Positions 12,216 through 21,301 of a stretch of DNA of 24,205 nucleotides are shown here, piece after piece. The first letter of the stretch is position 1. Each line of letters opens with the position of its first letter. The stretch is from the IMG/VR virus record IMGVR_UViG_3300035703_000051, one strand, 5' to 3'. The notes below the pieces were generated by a model that was given only the letters and a program-made list of their open reading frames with translations, did no database searches and had not been told where the DNA came from. Origin of the DNA: an uncultured virus (IMG/VR IMGVR_UViG_3300035703_000051). Taxonomy: Duplodnaviria; Heunggongvirae; Uroviricota; Caudoviricetes. A program made the position numbers and the translations under genes.

Positions 12216-12343
12216 GGAGCTAAATATGTTTAATATTGCTTGATATTTTTATTTTAGAGGGAAGAATTTAAAAAAATAAGTGTTATAGACTTAAAGCACG
12301 ACCAAGTTTTGCCCCTGGTTGGGGTAAAAATAAAAATTAAGCC

Positions 12344-12633: not shown

Positions 12634-12666
12634 TACAAAAATAAGTTGTAAATTACAAAAATAAGT
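12634..12666. repeat. 13-bp direct repeat TACAAAAATAAGT x2, 20-bp period
   Basis: Copies at 12634-12646 and 12654-12666. Confidence 0.8.
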
Positions 12667-13291: not shown

Positions 13292-13316
13292 CGTCAAGCT
13301 GGACGTTAAACGTAGC
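13292..13316 (+). ncRNA. Candidate H-type pseudoknot leader element (family C, copy 1)
   Basis: CGTC-AAGCTG-GACG-TTAAAC-GTAGC; loop GCTG can pair with TAGC. Confidence 0.45.
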
Positions 13317-13339
13317 ATGCACATCTACACCACACCATC

Positions 13340-13885: not shown

Positions 13886-13934
13886 TCCTGCTCTAAGGGG
13901 CTTCGGCCCTTTACTGCAGGACTCAACATCCTGC
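13886..13934 (+). promoter_or_regulatory. Structured intergenic repeat family A, copy 1
   Basis: TCCTGC-TCT-AAGGGGC-TTCG-GCCCTT-TACT-GCAGGA-N7-TCCTGC. Confidence 0.65.
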
Positions 13935-13953
13935 TCACATTCAACTCAACACC

Positions 13954-14357: not shown

Positions 14358-14729
14358 TCCTGCTCTTAACCCTTCCGTTTGATGCGCTCTTGGCACAATG
14401 GTGGTTTCCACCGAAGTATCAAGCTTCTTTCTGAATCATATGCAGACCATCCTGTCATCCATGCAATCTTTAAGTTGTATTCTTCTAACGCAACACGATT
14501 GAATGCTGGATGATTAGATGGATTGCGCAATCGATTCCAGAGTATTTTGCTACGTCCAATGTACAAGATATTGTCATTGGCATCAATCAATGCATAACAT
14601 CCAGGGACAGCTGGTATCTGCTTGGCTTCCTGCCAAGTTACAGATTGCCAGTTGACTGGATTCATTTCCATTGATCAAGCATAATACGTTTGCGTATCGA
14701 TGGTGGGTTTTCTGCAGGATTCTCCTGCA
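14358..14729 (+). repeat. Structured intergenic repeat family A, copy 2, interrupted by the GIY-YIG gene
   Basis: Left arm TCCTGCTCTTAACCCTTCCGT (14358-14378) and right arm CGATGGTGGGTTTTCTGCAGGA-TTC-TCCTGCA (14698-14729) match copy 3. Confidence 0.75.
14366..14671 (-). CDS. GIY-YIG nuclease (stand-alone catalytic domain)
   Basis: PGCYAL-x6-LYIGRS...NRL...H...E motif as in the UvrC N-terminal domain; antisense to neighbours. Confidence 0.85.
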   Translation of the reverse strand: MEMNPVNWQSVTWQEAKQIPAVPGCYALIDANDNILYIGRSKILWNRLRNPSNHPAFNRVALEEYNLKIAWMTGWSAYDSERSLILRWKPPLCQERIKRKG

Positions 14730-14755
14730 CCACACCACACGACACCACTTGGATC

Positions 14756-15002: not shown

Positions 15003-15074
15003 TTCTGCACTTAACCCTTCCGTCAGTACACATGTACTACGACGGTGGGTTTTCTGCAGGACTCACCTCCTGCA
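15003..15074 (+). promoter_or_regulatory. Structured intergenic repeat family A, copy 3
   Basis: TTCTGCACTTAACCCTTCCGTC-AGTACACATGTACTAC-GACGGTGGGTTTTCTGCAGGA-CTCACC-TCCTGCA. Confidence 0.7.
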
Positions 15075-15092
15075 TCCATTGCACACAACACC

Positions 15093-15592: not shown

Positions 15593-16033
15593 ATGGACGC
15601 TCTCAGCCAACTTGATGTCACTAGCCCCGATCACGTCTCTGTTATCACCAGGGACGGGAAGGTAACCATCTCAGTCTTGAAAGATGGTACGTCTGTGACC
15701 CTTGGCTTCCAGATCCGTAATCCACGCCTTGATTCTTCCCCTCTTCCCCCTCTGCAACAGTCAGTACCGATGATTGTGAAGAAGGGGGACCAGGACAGAG
15801 TTAAGCCTGTTGGTGCACCTGGTACTACGCATGTGCGTTACCGTGGACCAATCCCTAAACTTAACCCAATTTCAGTACGTGATATCAAACTCTTGCTTAA
15901 TGATTCTAAATTCATGAGTAGATTCACAAGCAAGACAAGTGCATATGAAGCAATCGGTCGACAGTACAACGTGACAGGCTGTGCTATTGGCAATATTGCT
16001 CGTGGCATTGCTTGGAATCAAGTCAAAGTCTGA
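15593..16033 (+). CDS. Protein with C-terminal helix-turn-helix
   Basis: KLNPISVRDIK...AYEAIGRQYNVTGCAIGNIARGIAW resembles the HTH modules appended to phage HNH nucleases. Confidence 0.65.
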   Translation: MDALSQLDVTSPDHVSVITRDGKVTISVLKDGTSVTLGFQIRNPRLDSSPLPPLQQSVPMIVKKGDQDRVKPVGAPGTTHVRYRGPIPKLNPISVRDIKLLLNDSKFMSRFTSKTSAYEAIGRQYNVTGCAIGNIARGIAWNQVKV

Positions 16034-16043
16034 CCACACAACA

Positions 16044-16094
16044 CCTGGGCTTCCACTATTGAGAACTCTTCTCAACTGTGGTGTAAGTCCCAGG
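16044..16094 (+). ncRNA. Structured intergenic repeat family B, copy 1
   Basis: CCTGGGC-TT-CCAC...GTGG-TGTAAGT-CCCAGG. Confidence 0.65.
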
Positions 16095-16123
16095 ATCAAC
16101 CGTTCAATTACTCAATTCAAACC

Positions 16124-16252
16124 ATGACCAACCTCGATAACAACTACGAAGCTGACTACATGGATGCAATGGCAGATCGCCTTGCAGACATCGAAGAAGC
16201 TATGCGTGAATCAGAGCCACAAGAATGGGAGGGCTACGATGACGAATCGTAA
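16124..16252 (+). CDS. Very acidic small protein (42 aa)
   Basis: Manual translation MTNLDNNYEADYMDAMADRLADIEEAMRESEPQEWEGYDDES; ACTCAATTCAAACC leader; below ORF-track cutoff. Confidence 0.7.
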   Translation: MTNLDNNYEADYMDAMADRLADIEEAMRESEPQEWEGYDDES

Positions 16253-16327
16253 TCACGAAGATGACATCTTTATTGTCATCATTGCCATCATCTCCATTCT
16301 TGTTACCACACTCATCGATTCAATCCA

Positions 16328-16696
16328 ATGTCTTATCTCTCTGAACTCCAGAAGTTCTACCCCAAGTCCTACAAGTTGCGTTACGCAATCCAACGCTACA
16401 ACACCCACAAGGACTGGGAACACGAAGACCCAACGACTATCACCATCCACGAAACCACGCTCAACTACGGCGGTCCAGAAGAAGGTGGATGGTGGTACCA
16501 TGCAGGACTCCCAGTCCTCACCCACTGCATCTTCTCCAAGAAGCAAGCGGTCCAAACCTTCATCCAATACTTCGACGAGTACGAAATCAAAGACCAGCCC
16601 GACCTCGGGCTCACGTCGACGTACTCGAACTACGAAGTCAACTTCTCCAACGGATACGCTAAGGTCTACCCCGAATCCAAACCACACTATTGCTGA
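16328..16696 (+). CDS. Hypothetical protein (YGGPEEGGWWY motif)
   Basis: 122 aa with strongly C-ending codons; TGATG overlap with next gene. Confidence 0.8.
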   Translation: MSYLSELQKFYPKSYKLRYAIQRYNTHKDWEHEDPTTITIHETTLNYGGPEEGGWWYHAGLPVLTHCIFSKKQAVQTFIQYFDEYEIKDQPDLGLTSTYSNYEVNFSNGYAKVYPESKPHYC

Positions 16697-16947
16697 TGAC
16701 AACAGAAGTACTACCTCAGGTTCGGGGATTGACAACCAATCAACGCAACCTATATCTCTACTTCTTGGCACACAAGAAGAAGCATAAGAACACTCCGTGT
16801 TATGTACCACGGTGTTCAACACAAGTCTCTCGGCTTGATCAATATCTCAATGCATTGGTCAAGCTGGAACAATACGGTTTAATGCGCGTTGACAGAAGCA
16901 GTGCTAACTACACTGGCTGGATCATGCTTGATCCCAAGTCAACGTAA
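16696..16947 (+). CDS. Putative winged-helix DNA-binding protein
   Basis: GLTTNQRNLYLYF...YLNALVKLEQYGLMRV pattern. Confidence 0.55.
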   Translation: MTTEVLPQVRGLTTNQRNLYLYFLAHKKKHKNTPCYVPRCSTQVSRLDQYLNALVKLEQYGLMRVDRSSANYTGWIMLDPKST

Positions 16948-16964
16948 GTGTTATATGCGCATAC

Positions 16965-17022
16965 CCTGGGCGTCCGTACTCGTTGTGCAGATAGCACAGA
17001 AGGAGACGGTGTAAGTCCCAGG
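16965..17022 (+). ncRNA. Structured intergenic repeat family B, copy 2
   Basis: CCTGGGC-GT-CCGT...ACGG-TGTAAGT-CCCAGG. Confidence 0.65.
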
Positions 17023-17052
17023 ACTCAACTCAACCTCAACATCAAACTAACC

Positions 17053-17325
17053 ATGGACCAAAAGCAAACCTATCCTCAGAACGAGTATTACTACCTGGAA
17101 GAAGTCCGTTCCATCCTCAAGAATGTCCTAGCTCGTGAAGCGAAGCGACATCAGATGGATCAACATCTTGTTCCAGGTACAGAAGATGTAATCACAGAGA
17201 TCATTGCCATGCTGGAAGAACAGCTGGACTATGATCCAACACCAAATGAACTTGGTGAACCACCAATTACATCGGATGAAATGCATACAGCTGCATGGAA
17301 AGAACATGTAGCAATGCATTCATAA
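17053..17325 (+). CDS. Hypothetical protein (90 aa)
   Basis: ATG at 17053 after a long G-free leader. Confidence 0.75.
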   Translation: MDQKQTYPQNEYYYLEEVRSILKNVLAREAKRHQMDQHLVPGTEDVITEIIAMLEEQLDYDPTPNELGEPPITSDEMHTAAWKEHVAMHS

Positions 17326-17338
17326 ATCTTAGTCTCAC

Positions 17339-17362
17339 CCCCTGCTTTCTTAGCAGGGGTTT
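17339..17362 (+). terminator. Terminator-like hairpin
   Basis: CCCCTGCT-TTCTT-AGCAGGGG followed by TTT (short U tract). Confidence 0.5.
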
Positions 17363-17394
17363 AAGTTACAATAAGCAGGATTTTATTTCTTGTC

Positions 17395-17754
17395 ATGCCT
17401 GGAGGTTGGTTAACACCTGAAGCTCGCAAACGTTGGGAGCAAGCCAATCCTGAAAAGATGGCTGCGCAGCAGCAGCGACAAAAGATGAAGAGACAAACTC
17501 CAGAAGGACGCAAGAAACGAAATGCTGCAACTTTAGTTCAGAAAAGAGTAGCAAGAGGTAAATACCCCAAGGTATCTGTATTTAAGTGCGTTGATTGTGA
17601 GCGTCAAGCTCAACATTATCACCACACTGATTACGATTTACCTTGGTTGGTAGTTCCTATGTGTTATTTTTGTCACAGACAAGAACATTTACGTCTTGCT
17701 CCCCCCAATCCCCCGAAGGGAGTACCAGGGGATATCTCTTCTATAGATAGATAA
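17395..17754 (+). CDS. HNH-type (His-Me finger) endonuclease
   Basis: CVDC...HYHHTDY...VVPMCYFCHRQEH with a basic N-terminus. Confidence 0.7.
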   Translation: MPGGWLTPEARKRWEQANPEKMAAQQQRQKMKRQTPEGRKKRNAATLVQKRVARGKYPKVSVFKCVDCERQAQHYHHTDYDLPWLVVPMCYFCHRQEHLRLAPPNPPKGVPGDISSIDR

Positions 17755-17840
17755 TCATCCCCCAGATATAAGCATTACTTATACATCATTCATTCCTTGA
17801 CAACCCTGGTAGACTTCACTCGTTACTCAACTCATCACCA

Positions 17841-18050
17841 ATGACAAATCCCAACACTCCACGCATTCCTGATTCAATTGACATCCAAAGACTCCAAGCT
17901 ATGCAGCTTGTAGCCAAGATGAAAGAATCAGCAGAGAAACATGGCATCGGTTTTATTGGGGGCTTTATTGCCCCCAATGGAGAGAAATTCGTCATGACAA
18001 ATATGGATGACGATGATGCCATGACACTTATGCCGGAAGATCTCAAATGA
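17841..18050 (+). CDS. Hypothetical protein (69 aa)
   Basis: ATG after ACTCAACTCATCACCA; ATGA overlap with next gene. Confidence 0.75.
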   Translation: MTNPNTPRIPDSIDIQRLQAMQLVAKMKESAEKHGIGFIGGFIAPNGEKFVMTNMDDDDAMTLMPEDLK

Positions 18051-18247
18051 CTAAAGAACATTCACCAATCAACTTTGATAAAACGATTGCTGGATTCAAT
18101 GTCACAGAACATGGAATCAAATCGTTTACTAAATCGTTTCAGCTTGGTCCGTTCCAGCTCACACTCAATGCTCGTGAGTCTGGTGTCCGTGGATCAATCA
18201 GTATCCCTGGTACAGGACTAAGCAAACGAAACATTAAATTATTCTAA
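18047..18247 (+). CDS. Small beta-rich protein, DUF4236-like
   Basis: LGPFQLTLN...SISIPGTGLS resembles the DUF4236 C-terminal motif. Confidence 0.5.
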   Translation: MTKEHSPINFDKTIAGFNVTEHGIKSFTKSFQLGPFQLTLNARESGVRGSISIPGTGLSKRNIKLF

Positions 18248-18248
18248 A

Positions 18249-18310
18249 GATCTGGGCATCTATTCAGCAACGCCGCGTCCAGGACAAGCTGGAAGTGTAA
18301 GTCCCAGATC
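18249..18310 (+). ncRNA. Structured intergenic repeat family B, copy 3
   Basis: GATCTGGGC-ATCT...AG-TGTAAGT-CCCAGATC; outer stem covaries relative to copies 1 and 2. Confidence 0.65.
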
Positions 18311-18334
18311 CCGTCCACCTACTCAACTCAAATC

Positions 18335-18520
18335 ATGTCTGCTTACACCGATGACATCAACTTGTTTGATCGAATCAATCTTGCTGCCTGCGCTGTGCGC
18401 AGAGCACAAGGATGCATACTTGACGAACAACGTTTCAATGCTGAGTACGAAAGTGCTCGTGCATGGAACAAGTACAAGTGTGTCATTACCAAACACTATT
18501 CCTACGTGGATGACAACTGA
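18335..18520 (+). CDS. Hypothetical protein (61 aa)
   Basis: ACTCAACTCAAATC leader; TGATG overlap with next gene. Confidence 0.7.
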   Translation: MSAYTDDINLFDRINLAACAVRRAQGCILDEQRFNAEYESARAWNKYKCVITKHYSYVDDN

Positions 18521-20586: not shown

Positions 20587-20805
20587 ATGTCTGATTACAC
20601 AGATGATCAATTGCTTGCCATGGCAATGGCAAACATCGGTGAATACATTCATGACAATTCACCGCAGTACATCCTGATCGAAGACGATCCACGCAACGAG
20701 GAAGACTACGACACATGGGAGTATGGCACTGAGCCATTACCTCATGACCACACTTGGCACTCAACATCAATTGATGTAGAGGTAAGTCCAAGTGTGGCCG
20801 ACTAG
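20587..20805 (+). CDS. Very acidic hypothetical protein (72 aa)
   Basis: About 18 D/E versus 1 R; stop lies inside the tRNA. Confidence 0.7.
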   Translation: MSDYTDDQLLAMAMANIGEYIHDNSPQYILIEDDPRNEEDYDTWEYGTEPLPHDHTWHSTSIDVEVSPSVAD

Positions 20806-20871
20806 CCCAACGGCAGAGGCAAACGACTTAAAATCGTTCAAGTCCCGGTTCGAATCCGGGGTCGGCTACCA
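20796..20871 (+). tRNA. trnL: tRNA-Leu (anticodon TAA), short variable loop, encoded CCA
   Basis: Acceptor GGCCGAC/GTCGGCT, D arm GCC...GGC, anticodon arm AACGA-CTTAAAA-TCGTT, T arm CCCGG-TTCGAAT-CCGGG, A73, CCA. Confidence 0.92.
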
Positions 20872-20894
20872 ATCCAACATTCAACTCAACCATC

Positions 20895-21257
20895 ATGCAA
20901 ATCTTTGCTGCATTTAAAGCTTTCATTCCTGAGTTTCATGCATACTCAGATGATGAGCGTCGCTACAACATCGGTGCTACATGGACCGATAACAATGGCT
21001 TGCAGGATTACCACAACCTGCAGGTTAAGTACGTTCGCAACTCAGAACGTCTTGCGCTCCAGGGTGATCCGCAGCCTGATGGCAGCTGGAAGTACGTTGA
21101 ACCCAACGGTGCTGTCCACATCATCTCAGCTGAACGTGCTCGGCACTTCATGGAAAAAACCCATGAGCATGCAACACTCATGTGCGGCATGATCGAGCGC
21201 CTCAAGCAGGCTGGTCTCGCTGATCAATTCATTGACACCAGCGCAGAACCTGTTTAA
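20895..21257 (+). CDS. Hypothetical protein (120 aa)
   Basis: ATTCAACTCAACCATC leader; terminator downstream. Confidence 0.75.
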   Translation: MQIFAAFKAFIPEFHAYSDDERRYNIGATWTDNNGLQDYHNLQVKYVRNSERLALQGDPQPDGSWKYVEPNGAVHIISAERARHFMEKTHEHATLMCGMIERLKQAGLADQFIDTSAEPV

Positions 21258-21276
21258 ATAGCACGTGGGTGGATAG

Positions 21277-21301
21277 GCCCTCACGCAAGTGGGGGCTTTT
21301 T
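21277..21301 (+). terminator. Rho-independent terminator
   Basis: GCCCTCAC-GCAA-GTGGGGGC-TTTTT. Confidence 0.75.

Follow-up and report, generated by a model that had tools for sequence, protein, structure and literature searches.

A covarying hairpin with a conserved asymmetric internal loop recurs between early genes of S-EIVl-like Synechococcus phages

A structured element, here called family B, recurs between genes in a 24,205-nucleotide (nt) stretch of DNA from an uncultured virus (IMG/VR record IMGVR_UViG_3300035703_000051), which is referred to below as the window. Judged from its fold and from the covariation of its stems, family B is a real structured element that has not been catalogued, and it acts in cis, on the sense strand of the early operon, most likely as RNA. 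We tentatively read it as a punctuation signal in polycistronic early transcripts, where it would be read by a putative factor and would mark or protect transcript ends, although our confidence in this reading stays somewhat short of even. The window can be assigned to an S-EIVl-like Synechococcus phage, as a piece of tailed-phage genome: among 50,697 phage records, Synechococcus phage S-EIVl (KJ410740) was its sole relative, matching at 73% identity over 24% of a 3.6-kb window query.

The sequences are best described by a hairpin of four parts. The outer stem, P1, is CUGGG/CCCAG, often with 1-5 extra complementary pairs that differ between copies (CC../..GG, GAUC../..GAUC, CAAG../..CUUG). It is followed by a 5′ loop of three nucleotides, C-N-K, most commonly CAU, then by P2, a hairpin of any sequence and length, from 2 base pairs (bp) with a tetraloop up to a three-tier stem of ~40 nt, and finally by a 3′ loop of seven nucleotides, UGUAAGU, which is continuous with P1. 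The insert above the conserved base ranges from 8 to ~46 nt, and the shortest element, found in a related genome (L121:7463), has 28 nt. The initial annotation had described the heptamer as a T-loop-like bulge; it is instead the 3′ strand of a 3 × 7 internal loop, neither a bulge nor a hairpin loop. In the commonest class among the relatives, of 39 nt (L008:197-243, L121:5279-5325), the apical loop contains a second GUAAGU (..CGACGUAAGUACGG..), so that these copies present the hexamer twice.

In the window, GTGTAAGTCCCAG was found exactly at 16081, 17009 and 18295, on the + strand only, and there were no further matches with up to 2 mismatches. The chance expectation was 0.41, 3 matches were reached in 0 of 100 shuffles, and in each of the three copies this sequence forms the 3′ side of a hairpin. 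The coordinates originally proposed for the three copies agreed with the sequence, as did their outer stems (CCTGGG/CCCAGG in two copies and GATCTGGG/CCCAGATC in the third), their inner stems (CCAC/GTGG, CCGT/ACGG and TTCAGC/GCTGGA, the last including one U-G pair) and the statement that their apical parts are unrelated. The three copies and the leaders that follow them are listed here, with fold z-scores computed against 200 shuffles per copy.

16044..16094, + strand: copy 1, 42.6 bits, E 2e-11, -24.6 kcal/mol, z -5.4; P1 CCUGGG 16044-49 / CCCAGG 16089-94; 5′ loop CUU 16050-52; P2 CCAC 16053-56 / GUGG 16078-81 with a 7-bp UUGAGAA/UUCUCAA stem on top; 3′ loop UGUAAGU 16082-88
16095..16126 including the ATG, + strand: leader after copy 1, 29 nt, G-poor (..UUACUCAAUUCAAACC), before ATG 16124 of a 42-codon open reading frame (ORF)
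16965..17022, + strand: copy 2, 33.3 bits, z -4.0; P1 CCUGGG/CCCAGG (16965-70/17017-22); 5′ loop CGU; P2 CCGU(A)CUC/GAGACGG and UGUGC/GCACA; 3′ loop UGUAAGU 17010-16
17023..17055 including the ATG, + strand: leader after copy 2, 30 nt, G-poor (ACUCAACUCAACCUCAAC..), before ATG 17053
18249..18310, + strand: copy 3, 30.7 bits, z -2.5; P1 GAUCUGGG/CCCAGAUC (18249-56/18303-10); 5′ loop CAU; P2 CU(A)UUCAGC/GCUGGAAG, present in the centroid fold; 3′ loop UGUAAGU 18296-18302
18311..18337 including the ATG, + strand: leader after copy 3, 24 nt, G-poor (CCGUCCACCUACUCAACUCAAAUC), before ATG 18335

Copies 1, 2 and 3 lie 10, 17 and 1 nt, respectively, from the upstream stop codon, which is TAA in the case of copy 3. 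A fourth, divergent copy, absent from the initial annotation, was found by a covariance model and is described below together with the transfer RNA (tRNA) gene that it adjoins.

The model was built from 30 short-class copies with a hand-written structure. Among these copies 97% of alignment cells pair, 27 cells carry double changes and all four P2 pairs are doubly changed; none of 500 shuffles reached the observed score, and pairing dropped to 50% or less when the partner was slid. Searching with the model returned 114 matches in 100 sources, of which 87 were distinct, and in these 87 rows 95.9% of cells pair, with 122 double-change cells, no equal among 500 shuffles and at most 52% pairing in the slid controls. 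This covariation indicates that the structure of family B is under selection, and it bears out the original suggestion that the element is structured, its core being conserved while its upper part varies and covaries. The 87-row alignment was fitted to the model, and most of its rows were retrieved with the exact P1 and heptamer pattern, so that variation in those parts is invisible there; unbiased variation was taken from six genome regions searched with filters off. P1 variants with compensated changes include CUAGG/CCUAG (L124:10669) and CUUGG/CCAAG (L121:1898, L122:10607 and the tRNA-linked copies), and one compensated P1 lies inside a coding region (CACACUUGG/CCAAGUGUG versus CAUACUUGG/CCAAGUAUG). 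Across the 31 sites of the six regions, U3-A4-A5 of the heptamer was constant, while position 1 was C in 2 sites and G in 3, position 2 was A or U in 2, position 6 was A in 1 and position 7 was C in 1. The invariance first ascribed to the heptamer therefore holds for the three window copies with GTGTAAGTCCCAG, but in the six related genomes just U-A-A is constant.

Family B is widespread in phage contigs. An exact-pattern scan of IMG/VR matched 119 stretches, many of the contigs having 2-4 copies, and 60 of 109 unique pattern matches in viral contigs had all four P2 pairs. Related genomes gave 5-7 model matches each (S-EIVl gave 3), and the matches gather in the early region. When the six genome regions were taken at E<=0.05, there were 28 matches corresponding to 27 sites, the 28th match being a weak reverse echo of one of them, and all 27 sites were on the same strand as the genes they precede. 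Occurrence in either orientation had been named at the outset as the mark of a DNA site, and a single orientation was found. Wherever TAAGTCC was intergenic and gene-oriented in the six genomes, the 5′ arm was also present. Bacterial and archaeal genomes contain similar patterns at 120 or more loci in unrelated taxa, and of the 121 matches listed none had all four P2 pairs and none had the leader context; we regard the listed ones as chance matches, which have no bearing on whether cyanobacterial hosts carry the element.

As for the identity of the element, a search of the whole window with Rfam 15 (cmscan, E<=1, permissive filters) returned no family at any of the four copies, in line with the earlier statement that no named family was recognised. 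The initial annotation had also compared GG-TGTAAGT-CC with the T arm of tRNA. This parallel fails because the flanking GG belongs to P2 and the CC pairs with the distant CUGGG of P1; the bases 5′ of the heptamer simply end the variable P2 (GG, UG, AG, GA and others) and pair with those after C-N-K. ARAGORN and RF00005 called the true tRNA alone and no family B copy. A T-loop, as far as the account in PMC4810234 goes, is a run of five nucleotides in which U at position 1 and A at position 5 form a closing reverse-Hoogsteen pair. Measured against this description, A5 is present in 31 of 31 sites, whereas U1 is kept in 26 of 31 (C in 2, G in 3) and G2 is replaced in 2, so that the T-loop consensus cited earlier is weakly compatible with the element. 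The K-turn, loop E/sarcin-ricin and UAA/GAN motifs were compared by eye with the element through their consensus sequences and were rejected, since the required G-A pairs or GAA strand were absent.

It is very improbable that family B is a self-cleaving ribozyme or a tRNA-mimic substrate of RNase P or Z. The conserved unpaired core beside a helix, the fit of U-G-U-A-A to T-loop U1/A5 in most copies and the ability of a tRNA to occupy the adjoining place would suit such a role, but no ribozyme or tRNA-like family was matched in Rfam 15, nothing was found in support of the small ribozyme suggested at first, conservation covers ~10 loop nucleotides with UAA alone invariant and U1 lost in 5 of 31 sites, and the element has neither an acceptor/T-stem stack nor a CCA-like tail. 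Of the other roles suggested at first, a protein-binding leader or a nuclease substrate may still apply.

The fourth copy of family B adjoins a real tRNA gene.

20748..20797, + strand: copy 4, a variant, covariance-model match 20749-20796, 14 bits, E 0.027, z -5.3; P1 (CC)ACACUUGG/CCAAGUGU(GG), 8-10 bp, a compensated form of CUGGG/CCCAG (CUUGG/CCAAG); 5′ loop CA (2 nt); P2 CUC-A-ACAUC/GAUGU-A-GAG; 3′ loop GUAAGU 20782-87
20796..20871, + strand: tRNA-Leu(UAA) gene, between copy 4 and the next leader (RF00005, 56 bits; also ARAGORN)
20872..20897 including the ATG, + strand: leader after tRNA-Leu (CAAUCCAACAUUCAACUCAACCAUC), before ATG 20895

Copy 4 sits within the final codons of an ORF (20587-20805), and at its 3′ end it shares two bases with the start of the tRNA-Leu(UAA) gene. 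The order hairpin-tRNA-leader was also observed in all four related genomes examined (L121, L122, L123 and L124), and in all five phages having tRNA-Leu its 5′ end was 0-2 nt from the 3′ foot of P1; this also holds for a tRNA of a different, 86-nt form. Among the tRNA-linked relatives, the 5′ arm shows a synonymous C-to-U change that is compensated by G-to-A in the 3′ arm. S-EIVl has no tRNA at this slot and its hairpin is weakened. From this arrangement, the 3′ foot of P1 emerges as a natural boundary, and since a tRNA can stand between the hairpin and the leader, the role of the hairpin does not need continued linkage to the downstream leader. In four phages the tRNA-Leu(UAA) at this conserved slot has 76 nt, a small size for a leucine tRNA; in one (L122:2656-2741) it has 86 nt. 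The ORF that reads across copy 4 has 72 codons and is conserved in S-EIVl; its stop codon is inside the tRNA-Leu gene, so its message would lose the stop codon on cleavage by RNase P.

In 60 copies chosen by their G-poor-leader context, a filter that was too strict in that 21 well-paired copies were counted as negatives, the distance from hairpin to ATG was 17-36 nt, and in 30 of the 60 it was 29-31 nt. The leaders after every hairpin family and after the tRNA have a G-free motif in common, (UU)UACUCAACUCAA, which lies 3-6 nt ahead of the ATG, and they lack a Shine-Dalgarno sequence. Neither -35/-10 elements nor a Shine-Dalgarno site nor a U tract was seen between hairpin and ATG, and a consensus scan at the four window sites showed neither room for nor sign of a sigma-70 promoter there. 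Family B lacks a U tract and so does not qualify as an intrinsic terminator: P1 is followed by GAUCAACC, GACUCAAC or AUCCCGUC, and none of 13 terminator-like sites in the window coincides with a copy. The tetramer UUAC, the complement of GUAA in the heptamer, was enriched in the leaders (29 of 68 unique leaders, where 13.1 were expected; none of 1000 shuffles reached this count), in most cases 2-4 nt downstream of P1. UUAC is part of a generic leader, UUUACUCAAC, that was also found after unrelated hairpins in the window (13590), and copies 1-3 have no UUAC beside P1. A GUAAG-UUUAC pseudoknot after P1 was considered, which is sterically possible and enriched in one subclass; it was rejected as it is absent from the three main copies and UUUAC is generic leader.

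Our tentative account of these observations runs as follows. The host polymerase would make a long polycistronic early transcript that carries the family B elements. In each of them the fixed base (P1 and the 3 × 7 loop, with C-N-K opposite U-G-U-A-A-G-U) would serve as a docking site, and the upper hairpin would be exchangeable. The candidate reader of the base could be a nuclease or RNA-binding protein of the host or the phage, or the base could adopt a compact tertiary fold of its own. The message would then be cut or ended at the 3′ foot of P1, so that the upstream cistron would keep a hairpin-capped 3′ end and the next unit would start with a G-poor leader without a Shine-Dalgarno sequence. 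At one site the same junction is taken by a tRNA, which RNase P and a 3′ tRNA nuclease excise.

Several points favour action as RNA. No polymerase, sigma factor or RNase family was recognised among the 48 ORFs of at least 140 amino acids in a relative rated 100% complete, many ORFs being without any family, and this fits transcription of long units by the host. The element has no sigma-70-like box, its distal insert is variable, and three of the four window copies come after genes that lack a terminator. Other observations weigh against the punctuation account. The fold comparison did not separate RNA from DNA: whole elements fold better in the sense strand in 48 of 73 cases and in the antisense strand in 21 of 73, but the advantage sits in the constant P1 and loop. 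G-U pairs in P2 are equally rare in both strands (29 of 565 in sense, 23 of 558 in antisense), and the P2 region folds better in sense in 36 of 73 cases and worse in 28, which is no clear bias. The stems are nearly perfect Watson-Crick palindromes that would suit DNA hairpins as well, and sequence alone is no proof of RNA. A plain hairpin protecting a 3′ end would need no conserved loop, ribosomes would unfold an RNA hairpin at copy 4 since it lies inside a reading frame, and in some relatives a promoter-like or operator-like sequence directly precedes the element, which is thus not always intercistronic. In L123, a promoter-like TTGACA..TATAAA lies directly ahead of the element, and in other relatives there are GCCAATAC operator-like palindromes. 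Operator-like palindromes GCCAAUAC/GUAUUGGC and UAUUCGC/GCGAAUA were observed directly upstream of several relatives' copies (L123:4040-4078, L001:7283-7305, L121:6218-6250), and a related UAUUGGCAAUAUUGC is present in the window at 15985-16001, within the coding end before copy 1.

Of the alternatives, the one that survives best is that family B acts at the DNA level as a hairpin-type promoter, extruded or single-stranded as in phage N4, with transcription starting just after P1; we consider it unlikely. The messenger RNA (mRNA) would be started at the G-poor leader by a modified host polymerase or by a phage polymerase that has escaped recognition, and the tRNA would be made from its own +1. 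This would account for the conserved block GUGUAAGUCCCAGG directly upstream of the leader, for the narrow range of leader lengths, for the tRNA 5′ end 8-9 nt after the heptamer in five phages, and for stems that are almost purely Watson-Crick with G-U pairs lacking strand bias. A copy within a coding region, as copy 4, poses no problem for a promoter, and the neighbouring family A hairpins come after terminator-like T-run hairpins, which would call for a restart of transcription. The N4 virion RNA polymerase uses hairpin promoters with 5-7 bp stems and 3-nt loops, and this giant virion polymerase is required. Family B resembles them in its covarying stems, in conserved positions near the presumed start point, in its single orientation and in its place before early genes. 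However, the N4 hairpins are short, whereas the insert here reaches from 8 to ~46 nt, and an N4-type giant polymerase gene is not recognisable here. No polymerase or sigma family was recognised among the 48 ORFs of the complete relative; PF00940 matched 0 of 3 records, a weak point since the control matched 0 of 14. In no register does the heptamer present A(-11) and T(-7) as a sigma-70 -10 box would, and the three window copies that follow genes without a terminator also speak against a promoter.

We think it rather improbable that family B is a translational operator or 5′ stabiliser, in which a loop-bound protein or the hairpin itself would govern ribosome entry or shield the downstream mRNA from 5′-end-dependent decay by RNase E or J. 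The roughly fixed distance from hairpin to ATG, the complementarity of GUAA to the enriched UUAC, and the copies that lie just after promoter-like sequence, at a transcript 5′ end, would agree with it. In five phages, however, the tRNA parts the hairpin from the leader and its excision would break their link, while UUAC belongs to the generic leader after unrelated hairpins too and is missing beside P1 in the three main window copies. Processive antitermination of the nut/put type, in which the nascent hairpin would bind polymerase, alone or with a factor, and carry it through the terminator-like hairpins of the early region, is improbable. Such hairpins with T runs do occur in the same co-oriented array (17339-17359, 21275-21298 and those before family A), and a conserved loop on a helix may recall the recognition hairpins of those systems; but one copy per operon would suffice, whereas family B has 4-7 copies ~1 kb apart, one per gene or gene pair, and neither a boxA-like partner nor a Nus-like or N-like protein was identified.

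Returning to punctuation, family B belongs with the known intergenic stem-loop signals of phage early regions. At the RNase III sites R0.3-R1.3 of T7 early mRNA, Dunn and Studier are said to have found that the hairpin remains attached to the upstream product, whose 3′ end it stabilises. Both sets consist of several related internal-loop hairpins in the gaps of a co-directional early array, upstream of the next ribosome entry region. They differ in that the loop and P1 of family B are far more conserved, its upper stem varies from 8 to ~46 nt, and its host is cyanobacterial; cleavage takes place at the T7 sites, and we liken family B to them on its position and its hairpin-with-internal-loop anatomy, as read from sequence. 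Polycistronic transcripts are also punctuated by tRNAs in mitochondria, and by t-elements in plant mitochondria. Here too a folded element lies at gene borders where a real tRNA can sit, as in the five phages, but family B is not tRNA-shaped and is called by neither ARAGORN nor the Rfam tRNA model.

Closer in phage type are the PeSLs of T4-type phages, which the accounts in PMC2839356 and PMC4122927 present, in so far as they bear on this comparison, as a stem-loop terminator, an AT-rich region, a strong sigma-70 promoter and a Shine-Dalgarno site. Like the PeSLs of Arbiol and Comeau, family B consists of repeated intergenic stem-loops before small early or ORFan genes, and in related phages the same unit precedes different downstream genes. 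In contrast to that description, family B has 17-36 G-poor nt up to the ATG and no -35/-10, Shine-Dalgarno site or U tract, and those accounts offer, as far as they go, no counterpart to its conserved asymmetric loop. Identity with the PeSL cassette was rejected, since neither a sigma-70 promoter nor a Shine-Dalgarno site lies between the family B hairpin and the ATG.

A bolder version of the punctuation account is that family B represents a new class, whose core (P1 with C-N-K / U-G-U-A-A-G-U) would be a tertiary knot that recruits a host nuclease of tRNA processing or decay, or stalls an exoribonuclease, and that would be interchangeable with a tRNA and serve as a joint for gene swaps; we consider this version doubtful. 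If such a nuclease-recruiting or nuclease-resistant fold were true, it would be a bacterial-virus counterpart to tRNA punctuation or to viral exoribonuclease-resistant RNAs (xrRNAs), and it would account for the recurrence of gene-exchange breakpoints at the same places in these phages. Whatever the mechanism, the distribution of the element suggests that it is a module boundary, a mosaic joint at which related phages exchanged downstream genes: the genes found after one and the same upstream sequence and element vary from contig to contig, and copies of different apical classes occupy one syntenic slot (after ..UUCUAAAGAUC, before AUGUCUGC..).

Cyanophages of the S-EIVl type form a widespread freshwater lineage; to our knowledge, nearly all of its early genes are unannotated and its gene expression is uncharacterised. 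A conserved element that is easy to recognise and stands ahead of many early genes offers a way to learn how the messages of these phages are organised, timed and stabilised in a host largely without Shine-Dalgarno-led initiation. With its small core (28 nt in the minimal form), modular upper stem and natural compensated variants, it is well suited to probing, pull-downs and end mapping.

The xrRNA class C, or coremin, was compared as well. According to the portions of PMC6546385 and PMC10520033 that concern its definition, coremin is made of two successive hairpins, with stems of 3 and 4 bp, together with a loop of the type YGAD or YGNNAD and a 10-nt spacer that is conserved. Both elements are small, have a hairpin followed by a conserved A-rich strand (GUUAAAC versus UGUAAGUC) and have a proposed part in protecting RNA ends. 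Family B, however, is one closed hairpin with its conserved strand in an internal loop, and has neither YGAD nor a spacer with a second hairpin; as none of the defining features given in those portions was found in it, identity with coremin was rejected. Elsewhere in the window, a coremin-like stretch was noticed at 13292-13329, just ahead of the first early ATG (13341), with a partly coremin-like sequence at 13293-13311. It consists of a GUC/GAC stem with the loop AAGCUG, then GUUAAAC, then a possible 4-bp GUAG/CUAC hairpin; GUUAAAC also forms the first 7 nt of the spacer in plant-virus coremin, and the loop does not obey the YGAD/YGNNAD rule. GCUGGACGUUAAACGUAGCA from this stretch also occurs in L121 and L122, where a family B variant comes after it.

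The window has two divergent blocks of genes. The large terminase lies at 213-1739 on the minus strand, in the structural block, and unannotated minus-strand ORFs run on from it to 12215. An array of small plus-strand genes starts at ~12340 and extends into replication and nucleotide genes, including endonuclease VII, ThyX and an NrdR-like zinc ribbon. Between the two blocks, the AT-rich control region has three copies of UA(A/C)AAAAAUAAGU (12269-12281, 12634-12646 and 12654-12666), which have UAAGU in common with the family B heptamer. The family A hairpins, CUGCAGGAYUC..CCUGCA, were seen at 13905-13936, 14705-14731 and 15047-15076, and also at ~15555, ~25 nt ahead of ATGs. Before each copy stands a GC-rich hairpin with a T run, resembling an intrinsic terminator, which leaves no room for a standard promoter ahead of the next gene. 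Between two family B units, a terminator-like hairpin at 17339-17359 (CCCCUGC..GCAGGGG followed by UUU) precedes a 119-codon ORF (17395-17754) that matches the PHROG endonuclease family phrog_2340 (E 1e-11) and looks like an inserted mobile gene.

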